From an uncultured Alphaproteobacteria bacterium (GTDB lineage: Bacteria > Bacteroidota > Ignavibacteria > Palsa-1295), in assembly GCA_964404255.1 (NCBI GenBank), contig CAYOJJ010000001.1, forward strand, positions 243,639 to 307,638: 64,000 nt of DNA, written 5' to 3'. The position numbers and the translations under genes are program-made. Shown here piece after piece: positions 7,268 through 38,922 of this stretch; positions within the stretch are counted from its first letter, which is position 1, and each line of letters begins with the position of its first letter. The notes under the pieces were generated by a model. The model saw only the letters and a program-made list of their open reading frames with translations. It made no database searches and was not told the DNA's origin.

Positions 7268-7274
7268 CTATTGA

Positions 7275-8696: not shown

Positions 8697-9617
8697 TTGC
8701 CGAAACCTTTCGGGTGGTTTTTGCATATTAGAGGGTTACGCGTGAGTTTTTTACGTAATATCTTCAGACCCGGCGCCTACGAGCAGACTCCCGAGGATAA
8801 AACTATCCAGCAGGAGCTTATTTCGCACGGTCGCATTCCGGAGCACGTCGCCATTATTATGGATGGTAACGGCCGCTGGGCCGAAGAGCGCAATTTCCCG
8901 CGGGCAGTCGGCCATCAGGCCGGTATTGCAAGCGTCCGCGATATAACGCGCGCCTCGCGCGAACTCGGTATCCGCTACGTGACGCTCTATGCCTTTAGCA
9001 CCGAGAACTGGAAGCGCCCCCGCAAAGAAGTAGCCATGCTCATGCGCCTGCTTCGCAAGATGCTCCATGAAGAGCTTGAGGAAATGTGCGATAACGGGGT
9101 ACGCCTTGCCACCATCGGCCAAACCAATTCGCTGCCGAAGGAAGTACAGCAGGATCTTTTTGCCGCCATTGAAAAGACAGCCCATAATACCCGCCTGACG
9201 CTTACGCTCGCTCTTTCGTATTCGGGCCGGTGGGACCTGGTACGAGCCATGCAACTGATGGCGCTCGATATCCGGCGCGGAAAGCTTTCTCCCGAAGATG
9301 TCAACGATACGCTCGTTAAATCGTATCTTACTACTTCTACGATGCCCGATCCGGACCTGATGATCCGTACGTCCGGCGAAATGCGGCTCTCGAATTTTCT
9401 CCTCTGGGAAATGGCCTATAGCGAAATTTATGTGACGAAAGTGTTCTGGCCGGAATTCCGCCGTGAGCACTTATATGAGGCCATTCAGAATTACCAAAGC
9501 CGCGAACGCCGTTTCGGCATGACCGGCGCCCAGCTCAAGGCCAAAGACGATGTACCCCCCGAGCATTCTTCGTATGTAAAACAAATCGTCGGCGCATTGA
9601 CGAAAGGAAAGCGCTGA
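8697..9617 (+). CDS. uppS: Isoprenyl transferase (undecaprenyl diphosphate synthase)
   Basis: 'HVAIIMDGNGRWA', 'YVTLYAFSTENWKRP' and 'IRTSGEMRLSNFLLWEMAYSE' are hallmark UPP synthase motifs. The N-terminus as called is long; the real start is probably downstream. Confidence 0.9.
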   Translation: MPKPFGWFLHIRGLRVSFLRNIFRPGAYEQTPEDKTIQQELISHGRIPEHVAIIMDGNGRWAEERNFPRAVGHQAGIASVRDITRASRELGIRYVTLYAFSTENWKRPRKEVAMLMRLLRKMLHEELEEMCDNGVRLATIGQTNSLPKEVQQDLFAAIEKTAHNTRLTLTLALSYSGRWDLVRAMQLMALDIRRGKLSPEDVNDTLVKSYLTTSTMPDPDLMIRTSGEMRLSNFLLWEMAYSEIYVTKVFWPEFRREHLYEAIQNYQSRERRFGMTGAQLKAKDDVPPEHSSYVKQIVGALTKGKR

Positions 9618-9640
9618 TCTATTGCTCTCATCCCAAACTA

Positions 9641-12067
9641 ATGACTTTTTTCCGCTTGCCTAAGCCAGGTACTTTCATTGCCATCGTATTGGCCGCTCTG
9701 GTTGCTATCGCTGCCCCGCTTCGCGCCCAGGCGCCGGTAGAGCAGCAATATCTTATCATGGGTATTACGGTCGAGGGTAATCAATCCGGTAATGCCGAGA
9801 CGATCATCTCGCAGAGTATGCTGCGAAAAGGCATGAAATTCACGATGCCGAGCAGTGAGATCAGCCGGGCTATCGAGCGCTTGTGGGACCAGAATATTTA
9901 TTCCGATGTCCATATCGATGCTGCAAGGCTCGAACCACAGACCGATGGAACGATCGGCGTCTATATGACCATCAAAGTAAAAGAGTTTTCCCGGGTCGAT
10001 TCGGTGATCATCGAAGGCAACAAGCATCTTTCCAAGACCGATATTGATAAAGCCTACTCCTTCTATAAGAATGAATTTCTCCGCCCCTGGGATATCGATA
10101 ATGCCAAGCAGAAGATCAAAGCGGCCTATATTAAAGAAGGATATAATTTCGTAGAGATCACCGATGAAACGGTGCCGAAAGACGATGGTACGAATAAAGT
10201 GCTGTTATACCTGCATATCAACGAAGGCACCGAAGTAACCGTCCGTCATATCGATTTCACCGGTAACGATAAAATGTCCGCCGGCGATCTTCGCGGCGCC
10301 ATGGACGATACTCATGAAAAGCGCTGGTATAAGATCTTCACGAGCGGCTCGTTCGACGAAAAGAAGTATAATGAAGATAAGCAGAAAGTCCTGGCGCTTT
10401 ACCGATCCAAAGGCTTTCGCGATGCTACCATTCTTTCCGATACGGTATGGGTTACTAACGGTTCGGACCTGAACATCCTTATTAAAGTTTACGAAGGCGC
10501 GCAGTATTATATCCGCAATCTTGCCGTTGTCGGCAATGAAGTCTTTACCGAAGAAGAAGTCCGCCGGGCTATTGGATTTAGAAAAGGCGATCTCTATAAT
10601 CTCGAACGCTTCGATCTTAATTTAAAGGGGCCGACTCAGGATTTCAATGACGTGGGTTCGCTCTATTATGACCGCGGTTATCTCGCCAATGTCAATAAAG
10701 ATGAGACCGTTGTAGCTCCCGACTCCGTTGATATTACCGTTCGCATTCAGGAAGGCAAACGTCATTACTTCCGTAATATCGAGATTAATGGCAATACCAA
10801 GACAAAAGACTTTGTGATCCGCCGCGAGCTGTATACGCGCCCGGGCGATCCCTTCAGCCGCTCGGCGATCATCCGTTCACTTCGCCAGCTCGCGCAGCTC
10901 AATTATTTCAATCAGGAAAAATTGCAGCCGGATGTACGCCCCGTTGCCGATGCCACGCAATTCGACGTCACCTATAATCTTGAAGAAAAATCGAGCGATA
11001 CTTTTAATGCTTCGATCGGCTATGGTGGTGCGTTGGGGCTTACGGGCTCTGTCGGTGTATCGTTCAATAACTTCGATATTGCCGATCCTCTGCATGGTGG
11101 CGCTGGGCAGGTATTTTCCGTTTCGGCAGAATTCGGCCAGCAAAGCTACCGTACGCTTTCGCTAAGTTTCACGGAGCCATGGTTATTCCAGGAGCCGACC
11201 TCGTTCGGGTTTTCGATCTTCAATACGCAGAGCTTCATTTATTTCGAGCAAAAGGTTACCGGCGCTTCGATCTCCGTCGGCCGCCGTTTCCGCTGGCCGG
11301 ATGATTTCTTCCGCGGCGATTGGTCGATCTCCGGTCTTCATACTGATATCGTCAATGGTGGCGGCTACTATTCGACGGGCGTGAACGATGAGTTGAGCTT
11401 GCAACAGGTGATTTCGCGTAACTCGATTGACGATCCGCTATTCCCGGGTACGGGCTCGGAATTCTCTTTCCTGAGCAAGATCGCTTACCTTCCGCCGAAA
11501 GTGGTTGCTCCGAATATTGCAGCAAACTATTACCGCCTCGGACTTACCACCAAATTTTATAATACGCTTTTTAGCTTCAACCCGACAAATAAATTCGTTC
11601 TTGCAACCACCGGCGAGATTGGCCAGCTTGGAAATGTTTCCGGCTCGCCGTTCATTCCGCCGCAGAATAGATTTGTCATGGGTGGTTCGGGTTTAACGAG
11701 CGGCTTTGTGACGATACCGTTACGCGGCTATGACGATGCCTCTATCGGCTCGCATCATGCAACCGGTTCTACATTTGCACAAGGTGGTAATGCATATATG
11801 CGCTTTGCGGCAGAGCTTCGTTTTCAGATCGCTCGCGAACCGATCCCGATCTTCATCAATCTCTTTGGTGAAGCCGGAGATGTGTGGGAAGATTTCTCTC
11901 ACGCCGATCCCTTTAACTTAAAACGCTCGCTTGGTATCGGCGCCCGGTTACAGGTCCCGGCGGTTGGCCTTATTGGTATCGATGAAGCCTATGGCTTCGA
12001 TAACGTCATACCGTTCGGTACCCCGAGCGGCTGGCATACGCACTTCCAGTTCGGTAAGTTCTTCTAA
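9641..12067 (+). CDS. bamA: Outer membrane protein assembly factor BamA
   Basis: 808 aa with a signal peptide and repeated POTRA-like modules ('IEGN', 'FRKGD.YN'). A C-terminal beta-barrel ends in '...FQFGKFF'. Confidence 0.9.
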   Translation: MTFFRLPKPGTFIAIVLAALVAIAAPLRAQAPVEQQYLIMGITVEGNQSGNAETIISQSMLRKGMKFTMPSSEISRAIERLWDQNIYSDVHIDAARLEPQTDGTIGVYMTIKVKEFSRVDSVIIEGNKHLSKTDIDKAYSFYKNEFLRPWDIDNAKQKIKAAYIKEGYNFVEITDETVPKDDGTNKVLLYLHINEGTEVTVRHIDFTGNDKMSAGDLRGAMDDTHEKRWYKIFTSGSFDEKKYNEDKQKVLALYRSKGFRDATILSDTVWVTNGSDLNILIKVYEGAQYYIRNLAVVGNEVFTEEEVRRAIGFRKGDLYNLERFDLNLKGPTQDFNDVGSLYYDRGYLANVNKDETVVAPDSVDITVRIQEGKRHYFRNIEINGNTKTKDFVIRRELYTRPGDPFSRSAIIRSLRQLAQLNYFNQEKLQPDVRPVADATQFDVTYNLEEKSSDTFNASIGYGGALGLTGSVGVSFNNFDIADPLHGGAGQVFSVSAEFGQQSYRTLSLSFTEPWLFQEPTSFGFSIFNTQSFIYFEQKVTGASISVGRRFRWPDDFFRGDWSISGLHTDIVNGGGYYSTGVNDELSLQQVISRNSIDDPLFPGTGSEFSFLSKIAYLPPKVVAPNIAANYYRLGLTTKFYNTLFSFNPTNKFVLATTGEIGQLGNVSGSPFIPPQNRFVMGGSGLTSGFVTIPLRGYDDASIGSHHATGSTFAQGGNAYMRFAAELRFQIAREPIPIFINLFGEAGDVWEDFSHADPFNLKRSLGIGARLQVPAVGLIGIDEAYGFDNVIPFGTPSGWHTHFQFGKFF

Positions 12068-16276: not shown

Positions 16277-17002
16277 TCAGTCTTCTTTGGAAAGGATCGA
16301 TTCCGTTGATTGGTGCTTAAGCATTTTTGCCTCGACGATAAAAATAACGTCTTCGGCAATATTGGTCGCATGGTCAGCCAGACGCTCGACATGGCGAAGC
16401 AGACCCATTGCATGGGCAGCCGGCTCGATCTGAAGCGGATCGCGCTTCATTTCATCGATCAGAATATCGAAAGCCCGGTGGGCAGCTTTATCGATGGCAT
16501 CTTCGCGGTCGAACAGTGTGCGGGCAAGATTTGCATCGTTATTAATAAAGGCATCAAAGGCGAGTCGCGAAGTGCGATGGGCTTCTTCGATCATCGTCTT
16601 TAAGCCGGTACGTTCGAGCATATCGATCTGGCCTTCGAGCGCTTCGGTGCGCTCGGCAATGTTGACGGCAATATCGCCAATGCGCTCGAATTCGGAGTCG
16701 ATCCGCATGGCGGCGATAAGCTTGCGAAGATCGGTTGCTACCGGCTGGGTGAGCGCGAGAATACGCTGGCAAAGGGCATCGACCATCAGATCGTATTCGT
16801 TGACGCGCGTTTCCCGTTTAATGACAAAGCGGGCCGATTCATGATCGCCCGTCAGTACGGCACGCGAAGCAAGTTCGATTTGCTCATCGACAAGCGATCC
16901 CATCCTGATAAGCAGGGCACGAAGCTTATCGAGTTCATCCTCAAAATGGCGGTGGACCCGTGAGGCGGCGGCTTGAAATTCTCCGATACTATCTATACTC
17001 AT
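16277..17002 (-). CDS. phoU: Phosphate signalling complex protein PhoU
   Basis: Two PhoU repeats ('ERIGD.A.NIAE' and 'ERLADHATNIAEDVIF'). Confidence 0.9.
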   Translation of the reverse strand: MSIDSIGEFQAAASRVHRHFEDELDKLRALLIRMGSLVDEQIELASRAVLTGDHESARFVIKRETRVNEYDLMVDALCQRILALTQPVATDLRKLIAAMRIDSEFERIGDIAVNIAERTEALEGQIDMLERTGLKTMIEEAHRTSRLAFDAFINNDANLARTLFDREDAIDKAAHRAFDILIDEMKRDPLQIEPAAHAMGLLRHVERLADHATNIAEDVIFIVEAKMLKHQSTESILSKED

Positions 17003-17022
17003 GGTGGTTTATCTCCTACAGC

Positions 17023-17868
17023 TTATCCGAAACGTCCGGTGATGTAATCTTCGGTTTGTTTTTTTACAGGTTTGGTGAACATATCGCGGGTATCGCCGGC
17101 TTCGATGAGTTCGCCAAGATAGAAAAAGGCGGTGACATCGCTTACACGGGCGGCCTGCTGCATATTATGTGTTACGATAGCGATCGTATAATTATGCTTG
17201 AGTTCGAAAATAAGCTCTTCGATCTTTGCCGTGCTGATCGGGTCGAGAGCGCTGGCCGGCTCATCCATTAATAATACTTCCGGGCTCGTTGCGAGGGCAC
17301 GCGCTATACAAAGACGCTGCTGCTGGCCGCCGGAAAGCCCAAGGGCCGAGTGGTGCAGGCGGTCTTTTACTTCTTCCCACAGTGCCGATTGCTGCAAACT
17401 GCGCTCGACGAGTTCATTAAGCGTCTGCTTATTTTTCTCCCCCAAAATTTTCGGGCCATAGGCAACATTCTCCCAGATCGACTTCGGAAACGGGTTCGAT
17501 TTCTGGAAGACCATCCCGACGCGTTTGCGAAGCTCGACGACATCAAGGCGAGAATCGTAGATATTCACCCCATCGATAACTGCATCGCCGGTGATCTTGC
17601 AGCCGACGATCGTATCGTTCATGCGATTGAGTGTGCGAAGGTATGTCGATTTTCCACATCCCGAAGGGCCAATGAATGCCGTGACGCGGTTCGTTGGGAT
17701 ATCGAGCGTTATATCGCGCAAGGCATGCTTTTCCCCATAAAAGAGGTTAAGGTTTTTTGTCGAGACTTTTACCGAGTGGTACATATTGCTTTGTTCATGG
17801 CTCGTAACCGGTGCCACTTTATCAACGCGCACCTGAGGCGTTTGTTCCTGAGCTACTGGTTCTAACAT
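17023..17868 (-). CDS. pstB: Phosphate ABC transporter ATP-binding protein
   Basis: Walker A 'GPSGCGKST', signature '[15 protein letters not shown]', Walker B '[11 protein letters not shown]'. Confidence 0.95.
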
Positions 17869-17881
17869 CTCTTCCTATCTC

Positions 17882-18844
17882 CTATCCTAATTGTTGCTTG
17901 TTTCTTAAGCGCGACCGTAAGATCACCGCAACCAAATTCAGCGAGAACGTCAATGCCAGAAGCACCAGCGTCGTCGCATATTGCAGTGGTATGGTTTTAT
18001 CGACATTTGCCGACTGAGTAGCCAATACATAAATATGATACCCAAGATGCATAAACTGATGAGAGAGCGACGAGGGTATCTGGGGTAAAAAGAAGGCCGC
18101 TCCGGTAAAGAGGATCGGCGCGACTTCACCGGCGCCGCGGCTGATTGCCAGGATCATGCCGGTAAGAATGCCGGACATCGAGCTTGGCAATACGATCTTG
18201 CGAATCGTCTGCAATCTGGTTGCCCCGAGAGCAAGTGAAGCATCTCGCCACTCTCTCGGTACATTGCGAATTGCTTCTTCGACCGAGACGATCACGACCG
18301 GCATGGTTAGCAAGCCCATCGTCATCGAAGCCCAGAGAATATTCGGCTGCCCCCAGACAAGGGTGCCGGGATTAGCAATCGAATCGATTCCTTTGCCAAC
18401 GAACTGCACAAAGAAACCGAGACCGAATAACCCGAAGACGATCGAAGGGATACTGGCAAGCGTATTGACAGCGAATCTGATAGCCCGGGCAAAGATCGAA
18501 GTTGGCTTTGCATATTCGGAAAGATAGATCGCCGTGATCGTACCGAGCGGTACTGCCATCAGCGACATCAATAAGGTCATTAGTACCGTACCGATGATAG
18601 CCGGATAGATACCACCTTCCATCATACCTTCCTTCGGAGCTTCCGTCAGAAATTCCCAGGTAAGATGATCCCATCCTCCGATAACGACCGTTACGATGAT
18701 CGTAATGACGATCGCAACAATAATAAGTGCAGCAGCACCGGTCAATCCTCCGGAAAGACCGCCAAGCAGCCGTCGCTTCAGCGAGGCGCTTGCCAACAGG
18801 CTGTTATCGGCCCTGGATGCGTTTAATGAGACGCTTACGGACAT
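17882..18844 (-). CDS. pstA: Phosphate ABC transporter permease PstA
   Basis: EAA-type permease motif region 'EEAIRNVPREWRDASLALGATRLQTI.K.VLP'. Confidence 0.9.
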   Translation of the reverse strand: MSVSVSLNASRADNSLLASASLKRRLLGGLSGGLTGAAALIIVAIVITIIVTVVIGGWDHLTWEFLTEAPKEGMMEGGIYPAIIGTVLMTLLMSLMAVPLGTITAIYLSEYAKPTSIFARAIRFAVNTLASIPSIVFGLFGLGFFVQFVGKGIDSIANPGTLVWGQPNILWASMTMGLLTMPVVIVSVEEAIRNVPREWRDASLALGATRLQTIRKIVLPSSMSGILTGMILAISRGAGEVAPILFTGAAFFLPQIPSSLSHQFMHLGYHIYVLATQSANVDKTIPLQYATTLVLLALTFSLNLVAVILRSRLRNKQQLG

Positions 18845-20408
18845 AGAATTCTACCAGTGCATTAAGTAAGAATGTGAAGACGAATAGCAACGCACCAATT
18901 AAGAAAAGAATGGTGTAGTGCTGATCGCCAAAAACTACTTCCGCCATTTCCGCGCCGATCGTTGCAGCGAAGGTGCGGACGGGCTCGAAAGGGTTTGCAC
19001 TTGAAAGCGAAGCATTACCGGTTGCCATCAGGGCGATCATCGTTTCGCCGAACGCACGGCCAAAGCCCAGAATGATCGCAGCAAAGACACCGGGTATCGC
19101 TGATGGTAATACGACACGAAAAGCTGTTTGCCACTTTGTAGCTCCAAGCGCCGTACTGGCATCGCGTAATTGCTGAGGCACTGCCGTTAAGGCATCTTCG
19201 CTGATGGTATAAATGATCGGGATAATGGCAAAGCTCATCGCAATACCACCGACAAAAGCATTGAGCCGGAATTGGTATCCGAAGATACTTTGCAAAACCG
19301 TTGCCATGACGATGAGTGCAAAGAAGCCGACGACAACACTTGGAAGGCCGGCCAGGAGTTCGATGATCGGCTTCAGTGTCTCGCGAGCCCATTTCGGGGC
19401 AAAGGTACTCGTGAAGATCGCAGCAAGAATAGCAAGGGGCGCTCCGAAGAGGATAGAAAGCAATGTTACTTTGAGCGTACCAATAAATAAGGGTACGAAT
19501 CCGAATTTCGGGACGGTAGAAACGGGCTGCCAATTAGTGCCAAAAAATAGCGAGGAGAAATCGGTCGCATGAGCACGTTCAGTGGAATCGCGTTTCTCTT
19601 TTGCAGCAGCGCTATCGGCTTCTGCTTTCGATGCAAGAAGGCTCGCCGAATCTATTGCGGCAACTACCGGCGTGGACGAGACGCTATCCTTGCGAACCAC
19701 TGCCGTCGATTTTTGTCCGGGAATAGTAGCAACACCTCCCTTTTCATCGGCGAACGGATCATAGACTTCCTGCTCCACTTTGCCATCGCCGGTTGTCGTA
19801 AAGACTTTGCCTTTCTTTGGCTCATTCGATGCGGTAGGTTTAGCTTTAGCAGTAGTATCTTTTACCGCGGCAAGCGGAGCTGCTTTCTTTGCCGGAGCTT
19901 TCTTAACTTCTTCTACTGCTTCCTTCTTTACTTCTTTTTTAGGAGCTTCTTCTTTTTTTGCATTGGGGGTATTATCGGCCGCAGGAGTATCCTCGGCAAA
20001 CGGGTCGTACACTTCCTGTTCTACCGTGCCACCATTTTTGGTAAGCTCTTTCTTTTTACCGCTTGCATCTATTTTCACGGTAATATCGGTGCCTTTTATA
20101 CCTTCCTTCGATTTAATAACACCGACGGTTTTCATCGAAGAGAATGCCGTATCTGCTGGAGATACTTTTACAGAAGTATCTGCCTTCGCGGTTGCAGCGA
20201 CGTGGCTTGAATCGGCAACCGTAACCACTTCCGGTTTCGAGGGTCCGAAAAATACCGGAGAAGCTTCGCGAAAGACGAAGACGAAGATCAGTATGATCGC
20301 GGCAAAAGAAACGAACGAAAGGATACGAATCAATGCTTCGATAACCTGTTCGCCGATGCGTTTCTTTTTACCGAGCGTCAGAGGCTTCGGTGGATTGATT
20401 GGTGACAT
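18804..20408 (-). CDS. pstC: Phosphate ABC transporter permease PstC with ~230 aa lysine-rich, repeat-containing insertion after TM1
   Basis: The C-terminal ~290 aa is canonical PstC ('LRDASTALGATKWQTAFRVVLP'). The N-terminal half has one TM, then low-complexity 'KKEEAPKKEVKKEAVEEVKKAPAKKAA' and a duplicated 'VEQEVYDPFA(E/D)' unit. Confidence 0.85.
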   Translation of the reverse strand: MSPINPPKPLTLGKKKRIGEQVIEALIRILSFVSFAAIILIFVFVFREASPVFFGPSKPEVVTVADSSHVAATAKADTSVKVSPADTAFSSMKTVGVIKSKEGIKGTDITVKIDASGKKKELTKNGGTVEQEVYDPFAEDTPAADNTPNAKKEEAPKKEVKKEAVEEVKKAPAKKAAPLAAVKDTTAKAKPTASNEPKKGKVFTTTGDGKVEQEVYDPFADEKGGVATIPGQKSTAVVRKDSVSSTPVVAAIDSASLLASKAEADSAAAKEKRDSTERAHATDFSSLFFGTNWQPVSTVPKFGFVPLFIGTLKVTLLSILFGAPLAILAAIFTSTFAPKWARETLKPIIELLAGLPSVVVGFFALIVMATVLQSIFGYQFRLNAFVGGIAMSFAIIPIIYTISEDALTAVPQQLRDASTALGATKWQTAFRVVLPSAIPGVFAAIILGFGRAFGETMIALMATGNASLSSANPFEPVRTFAATIGAEMAEVVFGDQHYTILFLIGALLFVFTFLLNALVEFYVRKRLIKRIQGR

Positions 20409-20512
20409 TATGATACATCCTTAATATGGTGACTGTAGTAAAAAGTCGTACCCGGAGAGCTTGCCGATCTATGCGGAGTGCTCTCCGGGATACGTATGTC
20501 ACCACAAAAAAG

Positions 20513-21355
20513 TTAGCGAACCGGGAAAAACCCTTCGTTCTTTACGACAGCCTGGCCATCCGGTCCGAGGATCCACTTGATGTATTCCTGCAGTGTGCCG
20601 GTGGGCTTCTGACGTAAGTAAATGTATAAGAAGCGGGTGATCGGGTAATTACCGGTCTTTACATTTTCTTCGGTTGGCTTATAAGCAGTACCGGAAGCTT
20701 CGATCTTCACGGCACATTCTTTAATACCTTTTGCATAGCCGGCACCGCCATATCCGATACCATTCACATCGCGCTTGACGGCGTTCACGACAGCAGCAGT
20801 ACCCGGAAGGGTCTGCGTGGAGCTGGCATAATCTTCATCGTTGAGTACGCGCTCTTTGAAGAACGAGTAGGTACCCGAGCTATTCTCACGACCGTAAAGA
20901 ATGATCGGAGCATCGGAGCCGCCAACTTCTTTCCAGTTCTTGATCTGGCCGGTATAGATACCTTTGAGCTGGGCAAAGCTGAGTTCGGTTACCGGATTGC
21001 CTTCGTTAAGATACACCGTAAGACCGTCCTTAGCAGTACGAATTTCAATACCGGTCGAGCCATAGCGTTCGCGGAGTTTGAGCTTCTCGGCATCTTTCAT
21101 CGGGCGCGATGCATCGCAGACATCGATTGTGCCGTTGATAAGAGCGCTGATGCCCGTGCCCGATCCGCCGCCATTCACCTGGATATTGACACCCGGATGT
21201 TCCTTCATATACTTTTCAGCCCAGCGCTGAGCGAGCTGAACCATGGTATCCGAGCCTTTGACGGTGATCGTCTCTGCCGGTGCGAAAACGAAGCCAACTG
21301 CTGCTGCAAAAAGGGCTGCAACAACGGTCAATTTCGCAATTAAAGAGGTTTTCAT
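20513..21355 (-). CDS. pstS: Phosphate ABC transporter substrate-binding protein
   Basis: Signal peptide and PBP-fold motifs ('VKGSDTM', 'GGGSGTG', 'ASRPMKD'). Confidence 0.9.
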   Translation of the reverse strand: MKTSLIAKLTVVAALFAAAVGFVFAPAETITVKGSDTMVQLAQRWAEKYMKEHPGVNIQVNGGGSGTGISALINGTIDVCDASRPMKDAEKLKLRERYGSTGIEIRTAKDGLTVYLNEGNPVTELSFAQLKGIYTGQIKNWKEVGGSDAPIILYGRENSSGTYSFFKERVLNDEDYASSTQTLPGTAAVVNAVKRDVNGIGYGGAGYAKGIKECAVKIEASGTAYKPTEENVKTGNYPITRFLYIYLRQKPTGTLQEYIKWILGPDGQAVVKNEGFFPVR

Positions 21356-21394
21356 ATTCTAAATTCCTTTACTTTCAGTTCTTGTATCCTATGA

Positions 21395-23035
21395 TTAAAA
21401 TTTGTATTGCATACGGAAGGTGAAGCGATCGTCGTGAGCATCGGCAACCGTTGCAACAACCGGGGCAGCAGCAGTACCACCATTTTTGGTGAATTCTTCG
21501 GTGGTCGGATGATCCCAGTCAAGCATAAGGCGCATCGAGCCCGAAATAAAGATATTAAGATCGACCGAAATAGTATTGGTAGCAAGGTCTCCACCAAAAC
21601 CATTGTTTGCCTGAACACCTTTAAGTGTGGTGCCGGTAGTACCGTTAACAGCAAAGATATCGGTACCTTTTACATCCGTATTCGGGTCATACATTTCGTA
21701 GCGAAGCGCTAATTGAAGGTTATCGCCAAGGTTCTGTACGAGCATTGCATAGAAGCCCATGACATTTTTGATAACCGTCGAAGCAACCGGTGCTCCGAGC
21801 GCATCGGCATCGGCTTTGGAGAATAAGTATGCCGAACCGTAGAAAGGAACATGGCCGGTATAAAGCTCACCCTTGATGATCGAGCCGCCGAAAGGCAGTA
21901 CCGATAAGTAAACTTGTGCATCGGCACCAAACAGGGAGCGATTTGACTCAAGGAAGGTATTGTTCTGGAGATTAAAGCTATGAGTGGTCTTCGGATTATC
22001 ACTCTTATGAAGTTGTAAAGCACCGTTAGTACCATCATACTTTGCGACGATATCCGAAGGCTCGGTAATACCACCCATAGAGATAGAGCCACCGATATCG
22101 AAGCTCAACTCATCGCTTACCATAAAAGGAATACGCAAATGACCGATGATTTCCTTTGCCGGCTGGCCAATGACAGCGCTGCTTGCAAGAGCAATTTTGC
22201 CGGTACCTACACCGCCACTACCGCTCATTGGTGTTCCGCTGTTGAACGTACCACCTGGCAATCCTCCCTGAGTAAATAACTGGAGAGCGCCTTCTTTTGC
22301 AACGGCAGTATTCACACTTGCCTGGAATGCAGAATCTGCACCGGCAGCAACGTAAGAATTCTGTCCGATCGGAGCAGAAGTGAAACCAGCTTTATTGTTA
22401 GCGCCGGGCAGAAAGCCTGAAGGACCTGTTCCAAAATTGTCTGATCCATTGAAAAGACCAATTTCGAGCAACGGCTTAATATCACCGAAGGTCGGGTTAT
22501 AAGCAACCTGCAAGCCGAGATCGCGCTCGCCGTTAAAGAAACGGTTTTCAAAAAGCGAACGCTCGGTGACTTCGCGGGCGCTTGAAGAGTAAGCGATTTC
22601 ATAACCGAAGGGGCGGTTCATTGCACCCATGGTGAAGGTAAGGTCTTTTGTAGCATACCAATCGGCGAAGACTTCTTTCATTACAAGGCCGTTTTCCGTA
22701 ATATCCGGATAAACGGTTGCACCGATACTTCCGGCTTTATGAACGAATTTAACGCGGCCACGACGAATACTAAAGGCGTTTCTGTTATTAGCAGCCGAAG
22801 CAAGAGAATCGCCATCCTGCCACTGCCACTGTGGCTGGACATATCCGCTGATCTTCAGCTTCGTAAGGCTATTCACAGTGTTTTCAAGTTCGGTTACGCG
22901 GTCAGCGACACCATCGACTTTACCGGAAAGCTCCGATACTTTTTCGTCGGCGGTTTGCGCCAGCGCCGTGCCTTGGCAGGCGACAACGAGGAGAGTCAAG
23001 AACGAAAGGGTCGTTCTAAGTTTCTTTGATAGCAT
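21395..23035 (-). CDS. Outer-membrane porin, phosphate-selective porin O/P-like, with N-terminal coiled-coil segment
   Basis: Signal peptide, then 'VSELSGKVDGVADRVTELENTVNSL' (coiled coil), beta-strand-rich body, terminal '...FRMQYKF'. Heads the pst operon. Confidence 0.7.
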   Translation of the reverse strand: MLSKKLRTTLSFLTLLVVACQGTALAQTADEKVSELSGKVDGVADRVTELENTVNSLTKLKISGYVQPQWQWQDGDSLASAANNRNAFSIRRGRVKFVHKAGSIGATVYPDITENGLVMKEVFADWYATKDLTFTMGAMNRPFGYEIAYSSSAREVTERSLFENRFFNGERDLGLQVAYNPTFGDIKPLLEIGLFNGSDNFGTGPSGFLPGANNKAGFTSAPIGQNSYVAAGADSAFQASVNTAVAKEGALQLFTQGGLPGGTFNSGTPMSGSGGVGTGKIALASSAVIGQPAKEIIGHLRIPFMVSDELSFDIGGSISMGGITEPSDIVAKYDGTNGALQLHKSDNPKTTHSFNLQNNTFLESNRSLFGADAQVYLSVLPFGGSIIKGELYTGHVPFYGSAYLFSKADADALGAPVASTVIKNVMGFYAMLVQNLGDNLQLALRYEMYDPNTDVKGTDIFAVNGTTGTTLKGVQANNGFGGDLATNTISVDLNIFISGSMRLMLDWDHPTTEEFTKNGGTAAAPVVATVADAHDDRFTFRMQYKF

Positions 23036-25799: not shown

Positions 25800-26348
25800 A
25801 TGGATAGACTCGTAGCCATCAATTCAGTCGAAGATATTTTTCCGCAGTATCGCAATACGCCGATTGGCAAGTTGCTCGAGTATCACGATCTTAATCGCGA
25901 TCTCGATCCCATAACTGCGCCGCAATTACTTATCGGTATGTGCATGGATAACCGCAAGCACTTGCGTATCCCTGATAACTTCTCGTATATCATCCGTACC
26001 GGCGGCGCGAATCTGCGCTATAGCGAATTCAAAGTATCGTATGCATTAGCAGTCGGCAATGTACATCACATCGCTCTTATCGGCCATACCAATTGCGGCA
26101 TGGTGCATTTGGTCGATAGGAAAGAAGCGTTCATTAAGGGCCTTATCGAATCGGCCGGATGGGATCGTGCCCATGCCGAAGCGCACTTCGATCAATACGC
26201 ACCGATGTTCGAGATCGGTAATGAAATAGATTTCGTCCTTTCCGAAGCCAAGCGCTTGCGTACGCAATACCCTAAGATCATGGTTGCTCCGATGATCTAC
26301 AGAGTCGAAGATAATCGCATCTACCTTGTCAAAGAATCGGCCGAGTGA
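25800..26348 (+). CDS. Beta-class carbonic anhydrase-like protein
   Basis: 'CMDNR' and 'GHTNCG' match beta-CA zinc-ligand motifs (CxDxR / HxxC). Confidence 0.7.
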   Translation: MDRLVAINSVEDIFPQYRNTPIGKLLEYHDLNRDLDPITAPQLLIGMCMDNRKHLRIPDNFSYIIRTGGANLRYSEFKVSYALAVGNVHHIALIGHTNCGMVHLVDRKEAFIKGLIESAGWDRAHAEAHFDQYAPMFEIGNEIDFVLSEAKRLRTQYPKIMVAPMIYRVEDNRIYLVKESAE

Positions 26349-28583
26349 TCAGACGCTTCCGAGGTATTCGAACTGGTACGTTTCGGAGATTCTGAATACC
26401 TGAATGGCTCCGGAACAATCTTTGAAATAGAAGATCGTAGATGGTGAAGCCTTTCCATCGAGGCCAACTCCATCTATGACTCCGTACTTATTAAGCGCCT
26501 GCGCTTTTACGATCTGCTTCACATGATCGTCGGCAAGCTTTTTTGCCGCGACCTCTAATTGCCCCTGCATCCAGCCATAGAAAGCACCCGCACCAATATT
26601 TATACCGGCGCTTGCCAATCCATTAGCAATTCCAACAGCAATACTTTCTCCTTTTGCCATTGCCTCGGCAACAGCGGAAGTTACTTCACCAATGTTCTCG
26701 GCAACATCAGTGATCAGATCGAGATCGGATGAAGAAACATTGGATTGCGGATTCGCTTTGATCCAGGCTTGAAAGGCATGAAGAGCATTGGTATCCTGAA
26801 CTATGCATAGCGCCACATCTTCCGGAATACCGATCTTGGAAAGAGCCGCTGCCATTTTTTGCAGCACTGCCCGGTGAGCTGCGGCCAGAGCAGCCTTCTT
26901 CTGCTGTTGTTCTTTCAGGTGTTGTTGGTACTCCTGCTGCCTTATACGTGCAAACCGCTCCTCCTCTTGCTGGCTGACTGTTGCAACCGCCGCTCTGGCA
27001 GTCCGGGCATAATAGGCAAGCTGGGTCACCCAATTATCGCACGATTGGCAAATGCTCAACCCTCTAAGCCAGGAAGGATCGCCGCCGGAATTCTTTGCTA
27101 TGGCATCATCGAGGCTTTTTTGCATCGACTGCCGCATCTTTATAACCCGGCCGATGGAATTCTGTAAAGTGGTGATCGCCTCGGCGATCCTGTAATCGTT
27201 ACGTCCGATATTTTTTAAGGAATCGAGAAGCTGACGCATCGAATCGATCGAAGCATCGAGATGACGCAGGCATTCTTTAGAGGATGTAACGATCTGTTCG
27301 AGGCGCTCGGTCTCTTCGGTCTGTTCGTGTAAAAGTTCGGAGCATTCTTTGGTGAGACGGTCTATCGTCGAGCGATGAGATTCAGCATCCGAGATGGCAT
27401 GAGAAAGAGCATTGCTGAAATTGAATTTCATAAGTACCGATTCAACAATCGAAAGCGAGTCGGAGATAGCTCTATATACTTTATACGCCTTTGCCGCTTC
27501 CTGCTCCATGCTATCGGCAATTCTTCTATATTCAAAGCCGCCATCGGCTGAGGCAATGTACTTTCCGAAAAACTTTCTTTGCAAAAATTGATACGCCTGC
27601 TCCAGTGAATCGAAACGTTTACGTTGCTGCTTCAGGCTATCGATGCGGTGTTGCAGCGAATCGCGATACGCCGTAAAATGCTGAATATTTTGTTCATCGG
27701 TCTGAAGATCTTTTTTATATTCTTCAATCTGAGTTTTAATCTTATCGCAGGGCCCGGGCTCAGTATTCCCATCGGCAATCGTAACCGTTGAAGGAAGTGA
27801 GGCGAGGCGTTCACCTTCGGGTGTGATAAGGGTTACTTTCCAGATATAGGTTTTAGTAGGCGAAGGGATGATGCCCGTAATATTCGTCGTCGGCAGTGTC
27901 ATCGAAGGTGCAGTCGTTTGCTCGCGCAACGCAATGCCGCTCGAGGAGAATTGGGCCGTAGAAGTTTGCCCGGGTATTATGGGGATGATCTCAAACTCAT
28001 AGCGGTTCGCTCCGCTCATCGAGGGAGCGGCCATCCAGGTAAAGGTGATCGCTCCAATGCTGGTAGTATCTCCATTGGCAGGGGTGATAAGTATCGGGGC
28101 GGTAGCAGCTATGATCTTCGTGACGGCACAATCGCTTGAAAGCAAAGTAGTGCCGGTAGAAGGTGTGCTGCCCACTACCTGCACCGAGGCGCAGATCGTA
28201 TAGATACCATCCGGCAGTGTTCCGCTTCGCTGGGTTGTGGATGCCGTTGCGCCGAAGAACTCGATAGCAGAAAATTGGATCGCATCACTTCCGTGGATAA
28301 TAGTGCTTCCGGGCTGAAGTGTAATGACGACCCCGGCATTATCCCGAACTTTGGCAATGAGTTCACCATCTCGGGTAAGCGTGGCGCCTATCCTTGCCGA
28401 TATAGAATGAGTAGTAGGGTTCAAAAGCGAAAGGGTGATCGCGGCAGGGTCGCTTTGCCAATCGGAGAGATGGTTACTTACAGTCGGTGCAACGATTACA
28501 TGAATTGCCGGCTGCTGGGCCCGGCTTCGCTGGCCGACCAAAAACAGTACGGCCAGCAAGATGAGATGGATAGTGTATTTCAT
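26349..28583 (-). CDS. Large secreted protein: two N-terminal beta-sandwich (Ig/FN3-like) modules, ~350 aa coiled-coil, C-terminal Gly/Ala-rich globular domain; unknown function
   Basis: Signal peptide MKYTIHLILLAVLFLVGQRSRAQQ. 'ITFTWMAAPS...YEFEI' is FN3-like. A long heptad-like Q/E/R/L-rich stretch. 'IAVGIANGLASAGINIGAGAFYGWMQG' is a glycine-zipper-like segment. Confidence 0.6.
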   Translation of the reverse strand: MKYTIHLILLAVLFLVGQRSRAQQPAIHVIVAPTVSNHLSDWQSDPAAITLSLLNPTTHSISARIGATLTRDGELIAKVRDNAGVVITLQPGSTIIHGSDAIQFSAIEFFGATASTTQRSGTLPDGIYTICASVQVVGSTPSTGTTLLSSDCAVTKIIAATAPILITPANGDTTSIGAITFTWMAAPSMSGANRYEFEIIPIIPGQTSTAQFSSSGIALREQTTAPSMTLPTTNITGIIPSPTKTYIWKVTLITPEGERLASLPSTVTIADGNTEPGPCDKIKTQIEEYKKDLQTDEQNIQHFTAYRDSLQHRIDSLKQQRKRFDSLEQAYQFLQRKFFGKYIASADGGFEYRRIADSMEQEAAKAYKVYRAISDSLSIVESVLMKFNFSNALSHAISDAESHRSTIDRLTKECSELLHEQTEETERLEQIVTSSKECLRHLDASIDSMRQLLDSLKNIGRNDYRIAEAITTLQNSIGRVIKMRQSMQKSLDDAIAKNSGGDPSWLRGLSICQSCDNWVTQLAYYARTARAAVATVSQQEEERFARIRQQEYQQHLKEQQQKKAALAAAHRAVLQKMAAALSKIGIPEDVALCIVQDTNALHAFQAWIKANPQSNVSSSDLDLITDVAENIGEVTSAVAEAMAKGESIAVGIANGLASAGINIGAGAFYGWMQGQLEVAAKKLADDHVKQIVKAQALNKYGVIDGVGLDGKASPSTIFYFKDCSGAIQVFRISETYQFEYLGSV

Positions 28584-29354: not shown

Positions 29355-30905
29355 CTACGGATTTCGCTCATAGATCTCAAAGACGCCTTCGGTACTTATA
29401 TAATGGTACTGCTCTCTGAAGTGATTATCTGCCTGCAGTTGCGTATTATAATTATCCGTTGAAGATGCAGCTAGTGTTGCCGCTTCATTACAACTGGCGC
29501 TAAGCAGCAGCACATAATTAGGACGTTTATCTATAACATATTCTGCATCGAATGTTTTGCCGGCCTTTCGGTCGCGGGCGATCTTTTTATCCATTAGTCC
29601 ATTTAGATCGAGTAACCTAATCGAAGGATTTCGAAAACCGATCAACCCTGCCTCACCGGTTGCCACCACCGCTGTATCATGGATATGCTCTTTTACCCAG
29701 CTTGCAGCAGCTTCATGATCGATCGTCGAATGACCGATGATCCTCGAGAATCCTGTTTCCATTGATAGGTGCTGACCGCGAAGCGTTACCCGTTCGATAA
29801 AAATAGTACAGAGGGAAAGAAACACACAGATAGTCATGGCAAGCACGGGCCGTGCAAAGAACCTTGTCCCGCCCCGAAACCTGAAAAAGAAGGAGCGAAG
29901 CCCGATAGTACTAAGTATAATGAGTATCGGGGCAATAGGAATAAGAAAGCGAAAGCCCGGCATCCAATCGCCACTCGAGTAGATAGTAAATACCGAAGCG
30001 GTACCAATGAATAATAAGCAGCTCACCAAAAAGCGGTGTCGATAGGTCGGCTCCGTAAATGAGAACGGTATCACAAATAATAATGGCCCGCATAAGCCAC
30101 CAAAACAGGCAAGCAAATACTTGAATCCTAAGATATAGGCTTTTATACCGCCGCCTGTTTTGGCGTAGAACGTATTAGGCAACAGATCGTGGTAGAGCGA
30201 CCATCTCCAGGTAATAAGTATTACCATAAGCAATAGATACGGGAGGAAGCAGTATCGTATCATTCTCAGTTTTTTTCCTGAAAGAATAAAGAGATATGCC
30301 ATAATGATGAGAGCAAATAGGGGCGCTTCGGGACGAACATAAGATGCGAGACCAAAAAATACTGCGAGGGAAAGATAATAACCGGGAGGAACAAGTTCTT
30401 TCGTTACTAATTGTTCGAGGATATAAGCGATCGATAAATAGAAGAAGGCGACCATTGTCATTTCCAATGCTCCGCAGCTCCAGAGGATAAAGGCCGAGCA
30501 CGAAGAGAGCGAGAGCACGGCAAGGGAGGCGTAAACCGTCTGATATAGGTCGCCGCGAAATAACCTTCTTGTGAAGATGAATAGTAGTACAATAGTCGCT
30601 AATCCAAAGAAATAGCTAAGGCCTTTTGCAGCCCAGAGCAGCCCTGCCTCACTTCGGGCGAGACCGGTATATTTTATTGCGGCGATCAATACTACCCACA
30701 AGGGATCGGAAAAACCTTCCACATATTCACCCGCATTATAGACAAACCCATTTCCCGAGGCGACATTATCGGCTACCCGCAGGGAAATAAAAATATCGTC
30801 AACTCCGAAGTTTATATAGTCGATCGTTTGTATCACGATCAATACACTGCTTAACCCCAGAAGAAGGACGACAAGCACGGACCGAGCCTTCCATTGAACC
30901 TTCAT
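29355..30905 (-). CDS. Polytopic membrane protein, GT-C-like, paralog of 775-2679
   Basis: 'GVDDIFISLRVADNVASGNGFVYNAGEYVEGFSDPLWVVLIA', 'RPEAPLF' and 'DLLPNTFYAKTGG' align with the 775-2679 motifs. The C-terminal soluble domain is distantly similar. Confidence 0.7.
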   Translation of the reverse strand: MKVQWKARSVLVVLLLGLSSVLIVIQTIDYINFGVDDIFISLRVADNVASGNGFVYNAGEYVEGFSDPLWVVLIAAIKYTGLARSEAGLLWAAKGLSYFFGLATIVLLFIFTRRLFRGDLYQTVYASLAVLSLSSCSAFILWSCGALEMTMVAFFYLSIAYILEQLVTKELVPPGYYLSLAVFFGLASYVRPEAPLFALIIMAYLFILSGKKLRMIRYCFLPYLLLMVILITWRWSLYHDLLPNTFYAKTGGGIKAYILGFKYLLACFGGLCGPLLFVIPFSFTEPTYRHRFLVSCLLFIGTASVFTIYSSGDWMPGFRFLIPIAPILIILSTIGLRSFFFRFRGGTRFFARPVLAMTICVFLSLCTIFIERVTLRGQHLSMETGFSRIIGHSTIDHEAAASWVKEHIHDTAVVATGEAGLIGFRNPSIRLLDLNGLMDKKIARDRKAGKTFDAEYVIDKRPNYVLLLSASCNEAATLAASSTDNYNTQLQADNHFREQYHYISTEGVFEIYERNP

Positions 30906-31088: not shown

Positions 31089-32531
31089 ATGAAACGCTCT
31101 GCCCTTGCTCTGTTTCTGTTACTGCCGCTGGTTGTCTTCGCTCAGCATAATGACGAAGCCACCGACCGCACCGAAAAATACTTCGATCATATTCGTTCGA
31201 CCGAATCCGAATTGACCACTTTCTTTCAGGCGATGCCGAAAGGCGGCGACCTGCATAATCACTTCACGGGCGCCATTTTCCCTGAAGAATATTATGATAT
31301 TGCCCGCGATAGCGGCTTCTATGTGAATCTAAATACTTTTTCTCTGTATGCTCCGCAGACCAACTCCTACGACCCCGGTGTCGTAAAAATTAAAACCTAT
31401 ACCGGGCCGGTCGATATTCGCACTAACCTTATCGAGAACTGGTCGATCAGGAATTATACATCCTCCGAAGGCGCTCCGGACGATTTTTTCTTTTCGACAT
31501 TCGGCAAATTCGGCGCCCTCGTGCCTGGAAACGAGACCAAGTATTTGATGAACCTAAAGAAGCGCTATATCTCCGAGAATATTCAGTATCTCGAAACGAT
31601 GTTCCTTCGGGCTACTTACGATCATACTAATAAAGCGCTCGTCGGATATTTAAGCAGCAAGGATGCCGATCTCGAAAAGATTCAGGCCGTTCATGATAAA
31701 GCAGCGCTTTATAAAGTACTCGATGAGATCTATTCCGAACTTACAACAAAGTACTCTTTTACCGATGTGGCAAATTCCTTTTCACAAAATGTAAAAAGCT
31801 TGTATGCGAAGTCGGCTCTGCCGAATGGCGCCGATAGCGCACTCGAGCTTCGCTTCCTCAATTACTGCTCGCGTACTTTGCCGCCTTCCGATGTGTTCGG
31901 CCAGCTAGTACTGAGCTTTCTTTCCTGTGATAATGAGCTTATCGTTGGCGTAAATATTGTGGCGCCGGAAAATAACCCGACCTCGATGCAGGATTACTGG
32001 CTGCATACCATGTACTTTGCTTATCTGCACGAGAAATTCCCGCAGGTAAAATATTCTATGCATGCCGGAGAGCTGACAATGAATCAGGTGAAGCCGGAAG
32101 ACCTGCATTGGCATATCCGCCAGGCAGTGCTTGAAGCCGGGGCGAACCGCATCGGTCATGGAGTCGATCTTCCTTTTGAGCGCGATTGCCTCGCACTACT
32201 CGATACAATGGCCGCGCGAAAAACCGCCATTGAGATCAATCTTACCTCTAATGAATTTATTCTTGGTGTAAAAGATGGCTTTCACCCCTTCCCGCTGTAT
32301 TTCAGCCACCATGTACCTATTGTTATCAGCACCGATGATGCCGGTATCCTCAGAACTAATCATACCGATCAATTCGTCCTACTTGCAAAAAGGTATTCCG
32401 AGGTGAAGTATAAGGATATTAAGCAGTTCGTCTACAATAGTATCGACTACAGTTTCATGCCCGATGCGAAAAAGAAGACGCTGCATACAAAGCTCGATCA
32501 GAAATTCACGGCCTTCGAAAAACAATTCTGA
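31089..32531 (+). CDS. Secreted adenosine/adenine deaminase-family metallohydrolase (ADGF-like architecture)
   Basis: Signal peptide MKRSALALFLLLPLVVFAQ. 'MHAGE', 'NRIGHGVDL' and 'ISTDDAGI' match ADA catalytic motifs. Confidence 0.75.
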   Translation: MKRSALALFLLLPLVVFAQHNDEATDRTEKYFDHIRSTESELTTFFQAMPKGGDLHNHFTGAIFPEEYYDIARDSGFYVNLNTFSLYAPQTNSYDPGVVKIKTYTGPVDIRTNLIENWSIRNYTSSEGAPDDFFFSTFGKFGALVPGNETKYLMNLKKRYISENIQYLETMFLRATYDHTNKALVGYLSSKDADLEKIQAVHDKAALYKVLDEIYSELTTKYSFTDVANSFSQNVKSLYAKSALPNGADSALELRFLNYCSRTLPPSDVFGQLVLSFLSCDNELIVGVNIVAPENNPTSMQDYWLHTMYFAYLHEKFPQVKYSMHAGELTMNQVKPEDLHWHIRQAVLEAGANRIGHGVDLPFERDCLALLDTMAARKTAIEINLTSNEFILGVKDGFHPFPLYFSHHVPIVISTDDAGILRTNHTDQFVLLAKRYSEVKYKDIKQFVYNSIDYSFMPDAKKKTLHTKLDQKFTAFEKQF

Positions 32532-37459: not shown

Positions 37460-38686
37460 TCAATTTATCAATAATTTCCCATGCCCCATCTGCTTATTAC
37501 CCTCTGAAACTCCCTCCCAGAAATATACCCCGTTTGAAAGCGAGGCCATGGAAACTTCATGCTGGCCCTGCAGGTCTTTTTGCAGGACTTTGCGACCGAG
37601 ATTATCATAGATCGCTATCGAATTCATTCCGGCATCTTCGGCCAGGTGCAGTACCTTTCCGGCATCGATACCAGCAACCATCTCGCGCTCGGAAGAAGGG
37701 ATATAGACCGATTCCTGTGGTGTATTTATGAACAGTACTCCGTTCTGGCCACCAACGAGTTCTTTGCCATCCGGCGAAAGCGCCATCATGGTAAATACCT
37801 GGTCTTTATTATAATAATCTGTTTTCCAGCTTTCACCGCCATCGGTACTTTTTACGATGCGCCCGTTTTGATTCACGGCGTACCCCGTATTGTTATCGTG
37901 AAAATCAATAGCGATGAACACACTGCTATCAGTGCCTTCATAAACCCGTTTCCAGCTATTGCCGCCATCAACTGTTTTATAGATGGCATCCTGGCCATCG
38001 GAGCCGGCATAGAAGCCTGTGCGATCATCGAGAAACTTCAACCCCCCAATGCTTCTGGTTTGATCGAAATCTTTAAGCAGCGACCAGCTCAAACCACCAT
38101 CGGTCGATTTATAGATCTTATCGGCAAGACTGGGAATAAAACCGCCTGCGGCATAACCGGTCATCGCATTAGGAAAATTTAAGTATCGATACACCAGTGT
38201 ATCGTTACCGGTATCCGCCGCTTTCCAAAATTTTCCGGCATTAACTGTTTTAATAATAAGGCCGTTAAACCCGCAGGCAACTATAGTATCAACCCCCAGT
38301 TGCTTTACCGCATATAATCCGAGCGAAGAAGAGAAATTAATATTATTCCAATTATCGCCGCCATCGAATGACTGCATGAGCAGTGCACAACCGCAGGTCG
38401 GATCATAACCCGCTACATAGGCTACATCTTTCGAGATAGAACTGACACCGAATAAAAAATAATCGTCAACCACACCCCAAATATCCTTGAAGTGCATCCC
38501 CCCATCGGTCGATTTGAAGATAGTAACATTTCCATTTCCCCAGGCGCTCAGGTAGGCGGTCATGGTATCGCCAAAAGCTCCGCCATAATAACTTTGGGGT
38601 AACGGCGCTCCCAACGAATGCCATTGCGATTCGGCGGCAGTGCTGACAAGCAGCAGACAAAGAGAAAAAAGTACCGATGTTTTCAT
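37460..38686 (-). CDS. Secreted BNR/Asp-box repeat protein with T9SS C-terminal sorting domain
   Basis: Start at MKTSVLFSLCLLL (signal peptide). Repeated 'S(T)xDGGxxW(F)K' Asp-boxes (at least 5). The C-terminal ~80 aa look like a T9SS CTD. Confidence 0.75.
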   Translation of the reverse strand: MKTSVLFSLCLLLVSTAAESQWHSLGAPLPQSYYGGAFGDTMTAYLSAWGNGNVTIFKSTDGGMHFKDIWGVVDDYFLFGVSSISKDVAYVAGYDPTCGCALLMQSFDGGDNWNNINFSSSLGLYAVKQLGVDTIVACGFNGLIIKTVNAGKFWKAADTGNDTLVYRYLNFPNAMTGYAAGGFIPSLADKIYKSTDGGLSWSLLKDFDQTRSIGGLKFLDDRTGFYAGSDGQDAIYKTVDGGNSWKRVYEGTDSSVFIAIDFHDNNTGYAVNQNGRIVKSTDGGESWKTDYYNKDQVFTMMALSPDGKELVGGQNGVLFINTPQESVYIPSSEREMVAGIDAGKVLHLAEDAGMNSIAIYDNLGRKVLQKDLQGQHEVSMASLSNGVYFWEGVSEGNKQMGHGKLLIN

Positions 38687-38922
38687 GATGTTCCTCGTGA
38701 TGATTCGAATGATCGATGATAACCGAACGATATACACTCCCTGCCGGGGAAGCATAGGATATATCGAAACTATACCTGTTGATATACTCCACGAGGAATA
38801 ACTGGATTCAGCAACTCCTTCTCAGGAATTGCTTATCAGACAAGCACAAAAGGAATGAGCAAAAACCGATAAAAAACGAGGAATAAATCTATTGGAATCA
38901 ATATATTTCGATCCCCAATTTA

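Follow-up and report, generated by a model that had tools for sequence, protein, structure and literature searches.

Tandem domains of the fibronectin type III (FN3) or immunoglobulin (Ig) fold are known from bacterial surface and matrix proteins such as RbmA of Vibrio, SiiE of Salmonella and the FN3 modules of CbhA from C. thermocellum. Another group of described proteins, which includes TelE, EsxX, Tse4, CdzC/CdzD and the N-terminus of VacA, carries a stretch of small residues with GxxxG spacing, and these glycine zippers are needed for the activity of TelE and CdzC/D (PMC10434224, PMC5380434). Those glycine-zipper toxins that have been characterised are encoded near cognate immunity genes and use a dedicated secretion system (PMC10434224, PMC5380434). 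Antiparallel helical hairpins occur in EnvC (FtsEX-EnvC) and in the Snf7 core of ESCRT-III, and the cargo of the type IX secretion system (T9SS) of Bacteroidota, within the Fibrobacteres-Chlorobi-Bacteroidetes (FCB) group, comprises large beta-rich secreted proteins with a Sec signal and a Gln after the cleavage site. Here we describe a protein of 744 amino acids (aa) that recalls each of these systems in some part; it is encoded at 26349..28583 on the minus strand of a 64,000-nt stretch of contig CAYOJJ010000001.1 from an uncultured bacterium, hereafter the window. We tentatively favour reading it as a Sec-exported, disulfide-stabilised and non-enzymatic cell-envelope protein that most likely sits at the outer membrane or cell surface and in which a helical stalk would present a binding or self-associating tip.

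The resemblances are limited in each case. The N-terminal module of the protein is only 9-22% identical in sequence to such proteins; its family has motifs of its own (consensus PSPYLSDW and RTGxLPxGxYxxC...C), it reaches the threshold of no Pfam model and, in contrast to RbmA and SiiE, it stands at or near the N-terminus with a helical stalk behind it. The glycine-zipper toxins leave by the type VII, type VI or type I secretion system (T7SS, T6SS or T1SS), next to immunity genes and with strongly conserved zipper glycines, whereas our protein carries a Sec signal, has no conserved gene of that kind beside it and shows glycines that vary; no sequence homology between it and these toxins was detected. 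The likeness to EnvC and Snf7 is a generic fold match only: unlike EnvC the protein has no LytM or other common domain, and its hairpins are predicted to be closed by disulfides. In contrast to T9SS cargo, both the protein and the 13 other members of its module family that were scanned are without a sorting tail, and the conserved element is at the N-terminus instead.

Conservation shows that the gene is real: when 1.84 billion representative proteins were searched exhaustively by HMMER with the 744-aa query, 716 relatives came up at E<1e-3, one of them full-length (P0002, 850 aa, E=1e-96); P0003 and P0004 are relatives of partial architecture. The open reading frame (ORF) is exactly the one described in an earlier note made from this DNA by sequence alone, and its GC content is unremarkable. 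Searches of Pfam, NCBIfam, PHROGs, PADLOC and PDB sequences with the whole protein returned only sub-threshold noise from coiled-coil segments (SMC/Rad50, LmuB, JetC, MakB, DUF4988), and neither the protein nor the profile of its C-terminal domain matched a PDB sequence below E=0.4. A coiled-coil ATPase of the SMC/Rad50 type was rejected: the matches touch only helical residues 280-590, far below the cut-offs, and a signal peptide and FN3 domains sit where the ATPase heads would be. A word-indexed search of 5.8 billion proteins returned the query itself or nothing when the protein or its alignments A1 and A3 were used, and with the profile of the C-terminal domain it missed even the query, whereas exhaustive HMMER gave the 716 matches; it seems that queries rich in helix swamp the word index with coiled-coil candidates. 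All named cluster members are annotated as "hypothetical protein". As far as the searched libraries tell, the protein is non-enzymatic, in line with the absence of a catalytic motif that had been noted before, and judged by these searches it falls outside the described families and joins two domain families that had not been described, even though its general kind, a modular exported protein of FN3 and helical parts, is familiar.

The first part of the protein is a module of 260 aa found in neither Pfam nor NCBIfam. A profile hidden Markov model (HMM) built from 133 sequences, query included, scores 219 bits over query residues 1-262. Its consensus runs in the order M, hydrophobic stretch, A-Q, "sPxPSPYlSDW" and "rTGrLPxGxYxlC...C", and ends in the FN3-like "PxLxxPxxg....FxWtPv...YxlxvxEv.pGQ ... 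YvWxVqa"; the query has SNHLSDW, divergent from the family consensus PSPYLSDW, and Cys131 and Cys152 of domain 1 are conserved in all aligned relatives. Domain 1 is modelled by AlphaFold2 (AF2) with a predicted local distance difference test score (pLDDT) of 88-97, structure comparison recognised the seven-stranded beta-sandwich of the FN3/Ig type, and the two beta-sandwich modules proposed earlier are thus confidently predicted to form a tandem FN3/Ig fold. Only 6 of 46 module members weakly touch a Pfam Ig model (Ig_Rha78A_N), and for this reason we do not regard the module as a described family.

The module recurs in front of very different proteins. Most relatives match query residues ~5-260 only, at their own N-terminus. 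Module, payload and fusion analyses rest on the best 150 of the 716 relatives; among these, the module stands at the N-terminus of 141 other proteins (142 with the query) of 188-4751 aa, one of which is annotated from an Ignavibacteriota metagenome-assembled genome (MAG; MBI5647224.1). The payloads behind it are diverse and typical of surface proteins: further FN3-like repeats make up the largest cluster (57 of 120), and CarboxypepD_reg or Big domains are among the rest. The payload class of the query is rare. The module appears to be the family-defining "head" of a large undescribed group of Ignavibacteriota and Kapabacteria proteins with interchangeable payloads. At one metagenome locus two module genes are divergent (L030:3-4346, minus strand, and L030:5995-7737, plus strand), which suggests local paralogue expansion.

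Comparison of the relatives shows that the three parts of the protein are separate evolutionary modules. P0004 (744 aa) has the N-terminal module and the helical region in common with the query (26% identity, residues 36-563) and differs at its C-terminus. P0002 is 32% identical in the N-terminal module and 54% in the C-terminal domain, with a different, low-complexity helical middle. In P0036, P0079, P0117, P0140 and the proteins of loci L002 and L003 only the last ~150 aa are common with the query, behind unrelated beta-rich N-termini and long helices, and proteins from Bacteroidales and Lentimicrobiaceae likewise have only the C-terminal domain in common with it.

The middle of the protein had been described as a coiled coil of 350 aa. 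A long helical region is indeed present; it is predicted as five broken helices (278-342, 350-386, 389-459, 464-498 and 511-582; AF2 pLDDT 70-90) and not as one continuous coiled coil, and a crude heptad scan agrees with the five-helix model, with breaks at Gly and Pro. A single-sequence AlphaFold run reached a pLDDT of 51, and the alignment-based AF2 model was used, which is good for the N-terminus and the stalk. The cysteines suggest how these helices are arranged. All relatives keep Cys279, which lies in the first turn of helix 1, and C279 and C414 sum to 693, which puts the hairpin centre at 346.5, within the predicted loop 343-349. Two pairs stand in perfect antiparallel register both in P0002 (297+519 = 318+498 = 816) and in P0003 (209+433 = 230+412 = 642), P0004 keeps C279, C414, C438 and C512, and in P0053 and P0075, two short module proteins, a helix-loop-helix of ~85 aa has a Cys at each end. 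C593 and C723 co-occur in the Kapabacteria-type proteins that have the C-terminal domain and are absent from P0004. The nine cysteines of the query suggest four disulfides. Because of this spacing the helices are expected to fold back on themselves and not to extend into a 45-nm fibre, so the idea of a surface fibril loses its footing, and the stalk probably consists of antiparallel hairpins stapled by disulfides. Since the cysteines are conserved and occur in co-varying pairs, the pattern is good evidence for an oxidising, extracytoplasmic compartment.

The export signal points to the same side of the membrane. The N-terminus has the n/h/c order of a signal peptide, M-K followed by the hydrophobic LILLAVLFLVG and SRA/QQ, where the slash marks the predicted cut (MKYTIHLILLAVLFLVGQRSRA/QQ), and the N-termini of 132 homologues align with the same pattern of M, hydrophobic stretch and A-Q; this alignment supports the ATG start codon. 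Cleavage by signal peptidase I is predicted to leave an N-terminal Gln, and Sec export to an extracytoplasmic location is supported by these sequence features. The module-family consensus at the cleavage site is A-Q, and a Gln directly after the predicted cleavage site is also seen in the window proteins at 21395-23035 (minus strand, ALA/QT) and 31089-32531 (plus strand, VFA/QH). This resembles the Q-rule of Bacteroidetes, which is not valid for the whole FCB group (PMC5837995). A bacterial lipoprotein was rejected, as residues 1-130 hold no Cys and hence no lipobox cysteine. T9SS cargo was likewise rejected: the T9SS tail models (Por_Secre_tail PF18962, type B CTD) gave no match to the protein at E<=1 or to the C-terminal domain set at E<=10, while the tail model does match other proteins in the window and in related loci, and the sorting tail is absent in all 13 of the other module proteins scanned.

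The C-terminal domain of ~150 aa forms a rare family, of which nine distinct sequences were found. Its HMM scores 203 bits on the query, and 17 columns are invariant in the seven-sequence alignment A1, namely F604, W607, N611, A643, G645, A657, Y669, K681, A694, G701, I703, F730-R-I-S733, E739 and G742. In the predicted layout four to five short helices lead into a segment rich in Gly, Ala and Ser (645-676), behind which come an amphipathic helix (678-695) and a sheet of four strands (700-743) that ends in FRIS-x(5)-E-x-LG; the pLDDT is 63-91 but below 50 for residues 659-679. Neither the seven sequences nor the profile of the domain alone matched Pfam or PDB sequences, no match to an enzyme family emerged, and no conserved triad of catalytic type is evident in the alignment. 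The sequence quoted in the earlier note for its glycine-zipper C-terminal domain, IAVGIANGLASAGINIGAGAFYGWMQG (residues 648-674), lies inside this conserved domain; the zipper proved to be only partly conserved and unlike a transmembrane segment. GxxxGxxxA/GxxxG spacing is clear in the query and in P0002 and degenerate in P0003 and the Bacteroidales subgroup; in the family as a whole A657 alone never varies and G664 hardly does, and in P0003 one face of the segment carries E, K and D. The crude Hessa-scale insertion free energy is +5.9 kcal/mol for the query (+1.9 to +7.5 for the family), and because this is unfavourable we do not take the segment for a stop-transfer transmembrane helix; such a reading was rejected on the energy and the charged substitutions. 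The strands carry runs of four hydrophobic or aromatic residues (FFFF[RK], [IV]FRIS), and the tails after "LG" are variable and non-aromatic, which is not the pattern of a membrane barrel. We read the domain as a putative soluble alpha/beta domain with a small-residue packing helix, which fits the hydrophobic runs in the strands and a zipper that tolerates charge.

The neighbourhoods of module genes point to a possible partner at the outer membrane. In 47 metagenome loci with the N-terminal module (L006-L052; ORFs crudely called) the module lies at the ORF start or within ~270 residues of it, and clustering of neighbouring ORFs revealed a family, here family A, near the module gene and on the same strand in 17 of them. 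Family A proteins, putative outer-membrane barrels, have ~560-590 aa, a signal peptide and a C-terminal aromatic residue (...YKF, ...RRF, ...HRF), and match nothing in Pfam, NCBIfam or PDB. They are encoded directly upstream of the module gene in six loci (from an overlap to a 31-nt gap, 7 nt in three) and in the remaining loci 0.2-4.2 kb from it, mostly downstream after an unannotated family B of ~800 aa; a LytTR response regulator and a Reg_prop/Y_Y_Y histidine kinase often stand upstream in these cassettes (examples are L008:4300-5973 with 5980-10704, and L019:1604-4132, 3904-6492 and 6492-8243). In P0078 (826 aa) and P0114 (927 aa) the module (~13-260) is fused through a Gly/Ala/Pro-rich linker to family A (residues 319-818 and 412-922, respectively), and P0078 ends in ...YRRNF. 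Gene order and fusion together make a functional link between the module and the putative barrel likely, which would be one of anchoring or export. A bolder reading, which we consider unlikely, is that the twin-FN3 module marks a system, so far undescribed, by which Ignavibacteriota and Kapabacteria display or secrete proteins at the outer membrane. Such a system would consist of the ~570-aa family A barrel, often with the ~800-aa family B and the LytTR two-component system, and with interchangeable payloads as in polymorphic toxins and adhesins; the protein of the window would be an unlinked cargo with a novel membrane-active or adhesive tip.

Under the explanation we tentatively favour, the protein would be exported by Sec and cut by signal peptidase I, fold oxidatively, and dock at the outer membrane or cell surface through its twin-FN3 module, on a barrel of the family A type. 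The rigid hairpin stalk, ~300 aa long, stapled by cysteines and reaching ~10 nm, would then present the C-terminal domain, which may bind a ligand or may pack tightly or self-associate through its Gly/Ala/Ser helix. The surface- or adhesin-like build proposed earlier, with FN3 domains, a helical stalk and a distal domain, is borne out to this extent. Several points weigh against this explanation. The AF2 model has a predicted template-modelling score (pTM) of 0.40, with the C-terminal fold and the domain arrangement uncertain and the glycine-rich segment at pLDDT below 50. Fold libraries gave nothing for the C-terminal domain, with match lists saturated by FN3 matches. Families A and B are absent from the 64-kb window and from beside every protein with the C-terminal domain (L001-L005), so that the docking idea is borrowed from paralogous module proteins. 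Finally, the protein shows none of the known signals for sorting to the surface, such as a T9SS sorting domain or a lipobox, and it may be retained in the periplasm.

This last point leads to an alternative that we regard as unlikely, a periplasmic scaffold or adaptor. The hairpin stalk would span part of the periplasm, as do the coiled coils of EnvC or membrane-fusion proteins, the C-terminal domain would contact the inner membrane or the peptidoglycan machinery, and the FN3 module would contact the periplasmic face of the barrel. The Sec signal is the only sorting signal, with no T9SS tail and no lipobox, a hairpin arm of ~65 residues (roughly 10 nm) is comparable to the width of the periplasm, and disulfides are equally compatible with that compartment. 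Moreover, the module precedes the barrel in P0078 and P0114, and periplasmic N-terminal domains often precede the barrel in outer-membrane proteins. However, other module proteins can be 2000-4751 aa long and hold Ig-like repeats by the dozen, as is usual for extracellular and not for periplasmic proteins, and the protein has neither a peptidase, LytM or other partner domain nor a conserved operon partner.

We give somewhat less weight still to a secreted membrane-active toxin or bacteriocin, the kind of function suggested by the earlier note when it spoke of a membrane-inserting toxin. The FN3 domains would bind a receptor, the helices would serve as spacer, and the zipper would insert and oligomerise into a pore, as in TelE, EsxX, Tse4 and CdzC/D. 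The query does have the GxxxGxxxA/GxxxG spacing (G651, G655, A659/G660, G664) with a polar stripe (N654/S658/N662), and low model confidence within the C-terminal domain is confined to the zipper, possibly a sign of a conformational switch; several C-terminal ends occur on one N-terminal module, as in polymorphic toxins, and the architecture loosely recalls the colicin-type layout of receptor, long helix and pore. But the zipper glycines are not conserved in the family, with E, K and D inside the segment of P0003, and the crude energy of insertion is unfavourable. Neither the window nor the five related loci (L001-L005) show a conserved adjacent small or membrane protein as an immunity candidate, and the genes examined around the target offer no T1SS, T6SS or T7SS context for a protein with a plain Sec signal. 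No sequence or fold match to a pore-forming family was obtained (the MakB match is noise, with E=0.072 and 12 bits where the cut-off is 240), and the alpha-helical pore-forming toxins of the ClyA/Hbl/Nhe/MakA-B type were rejected for the same reason; the toxin proposal gained no support.

An autotransporter-like adhesin, in which residues 678-743 would be a trimeric anchor forming a 12-stranded barrel that exports the stalk, is highly improbable and was rejected as a type Vc anchor: the modelled helix followed by four C-terminal strands has the topology of the YadA-type anchor (PF03895), yet no YadA_anchor or autotransporter model matches even at E<=10, the strands have FFFF[RK] runs in place of an alternating lipid/lumen pattern and end in variable non-aromatic tails, and the stalk is predicted to be antiparallel and disulfide-stapled, folded and oxidised N-terminal to the barrel, and not a parallel trimer. 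The probability that remains falls to functions not considered here.

Table 1. Features of the 744-aa protein gene and its convergent neighbour, in coordinates of the window.
Feature	Position	Strand	Basis
Whole gene; 744 codons plus stop, ATG start, stop at 26349-26351	26349..28583	-	ORF list
Predicted signal peptide, residues 1-22, MKYTIHLILLAVLFLVGQRSRA/QQ	28518..28583	-	sequence and aligned homologue N-termini
Beta-sandwich domain 1 of N-terminal module, residues 23-160	28104..28517	-	AF2 pLDDT 88-97, module HMM
FN3-like domain 2 of N-terminal module, residues 161-272 (P168, W183, Y195 conserved)	27768..28103	-	
Helical stalk, residues 277-585, five long helices, predicted antiparallel hairpins	26829..27755	-	
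Conserved C-terminal domain, residues 586-744	26352..26828	-	alignments, HMM 203 bits, AF2
Glycine-zipper-like segment, residues 645-672 (GESIAVGIANGLASAGINIGAGAFYGWM)	26568..26651	-	sequence
Convergent neighbour, 182 aa, marginal beta-carbonic-anhydrase match; outside the feature	25800..26348	+	Pro_CA

The target gene stands alone in its locus (Table 1). Upstream lies a divergent F420-oxidoreductase-like gene with a spacer of 122 nt. Downstream, as had been remarked, no space separates it from the convergent beta-carbonic-anhydrase-like gene: the TGA of the neighbour (26346-26348) and the stop of the target (TCA on the plus strand, 26349-26351) abut and together read TGATCA. The touching stops are real; because the adjacency is conserved in no relative (the neighbour is absent beside every relative examined, L001-L005), we attach no functional meaning to it, and a functional link between the two genes was rejected. 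The neighbour itself reaches 27.4 bits against the Pro_CA cut-off of 25.7 in a match that spans only its residues 78-127, and E=0.08 in NCBIfam, and it may not be a functional carbonic anhydrase.

A search for co-conserved neighbours came up empty, in that no gene recurs beside the proteins with the C-terminal domain in the window or L001-L005, all six loci being different. The relatives are flanked by sigma-54 and a disulfide isomerase (L001), by a T9SS-tailed amylase and AbgT (L002), by an unknown 156-aa protein and a metallo-beta-lactamase-fold protein (L003), by a polysaccharide-synthesis gene and T9SS-tailed proteins (L004), and by APH, an unknown 87-aa protein and a transposase (L005). 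About 7 kb upstream of the P0004 gene, L004:1-1192 carries a capsid gene of phage type (PF05065) together with small unknown ORFs and is probably the remnant of an unrelated prophage. Within the window, a very hydrophobic multi-pass membrane protein of 516 aa without a Pfam match at E<=1 is encoded at 29355-30905 (minus strand); its gene shares the strand of the target, lies two genes upstream and is separated from it by a plus-strand gene. A complete phosphate-uptake block occupies 16277-23035 (minus strand), with PhoU, PstB, two permeases (one unusually long, 534 aa), a PstS-like binding protein and a porin O/P-like outer-membrane protein that has an N-terminal coiled-coil segment. The gene at 31089-32531 encodes an adenosine-deaminase-family protein of 480 aa with an apparent signal peptide, possibly extracytoplasmic.

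The host lineage is probably Kapabacteria-like. The one close relative with a taxon label is HET9137315.1 (Candidatus Kapabacteria), and a genome scan located the C-terminal domain in three MAGs, one of Candidatus Kapaibacterium (57% identity), one of an uncultured member of Bacteroidales and one of Lentimicrobiaceae; it is also present in L002 and L003, and a scan of Joint Genome Institute (JGI) metagenomes with the pattern of the domain gave no match. A T9SS-tailed protein elsewhere in the window (37460-38755) is consistent with the FCB group. The window proteins, even PstB, are singletons at 90% identity, which indicates that the lineage is poorly sampled, and a literature search on Kapabacteria surface proteins turned up nothing relevant.

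Taken alone, the gene adds one more uncharacterised exported protein from an uncultured bacterium of the FCB group. It brings to light, however, two domain families absent from Pfam and NCBIfam alike. The N-terminal one is large, with hundreds of representatives at 50% identity and proteins of up to 4751 aa, and the C-terminal one, a candidate functional "tip", follows unrelated N-termini in Kapabacteria and Bacteroidales. The association of the module with the putative barrel is a more interesting lead than the single gene: if its role in anchoring or export is true, it would explain how giant surface proteins are displayed without the T9SS tail that the Bacteroidota relatives use.

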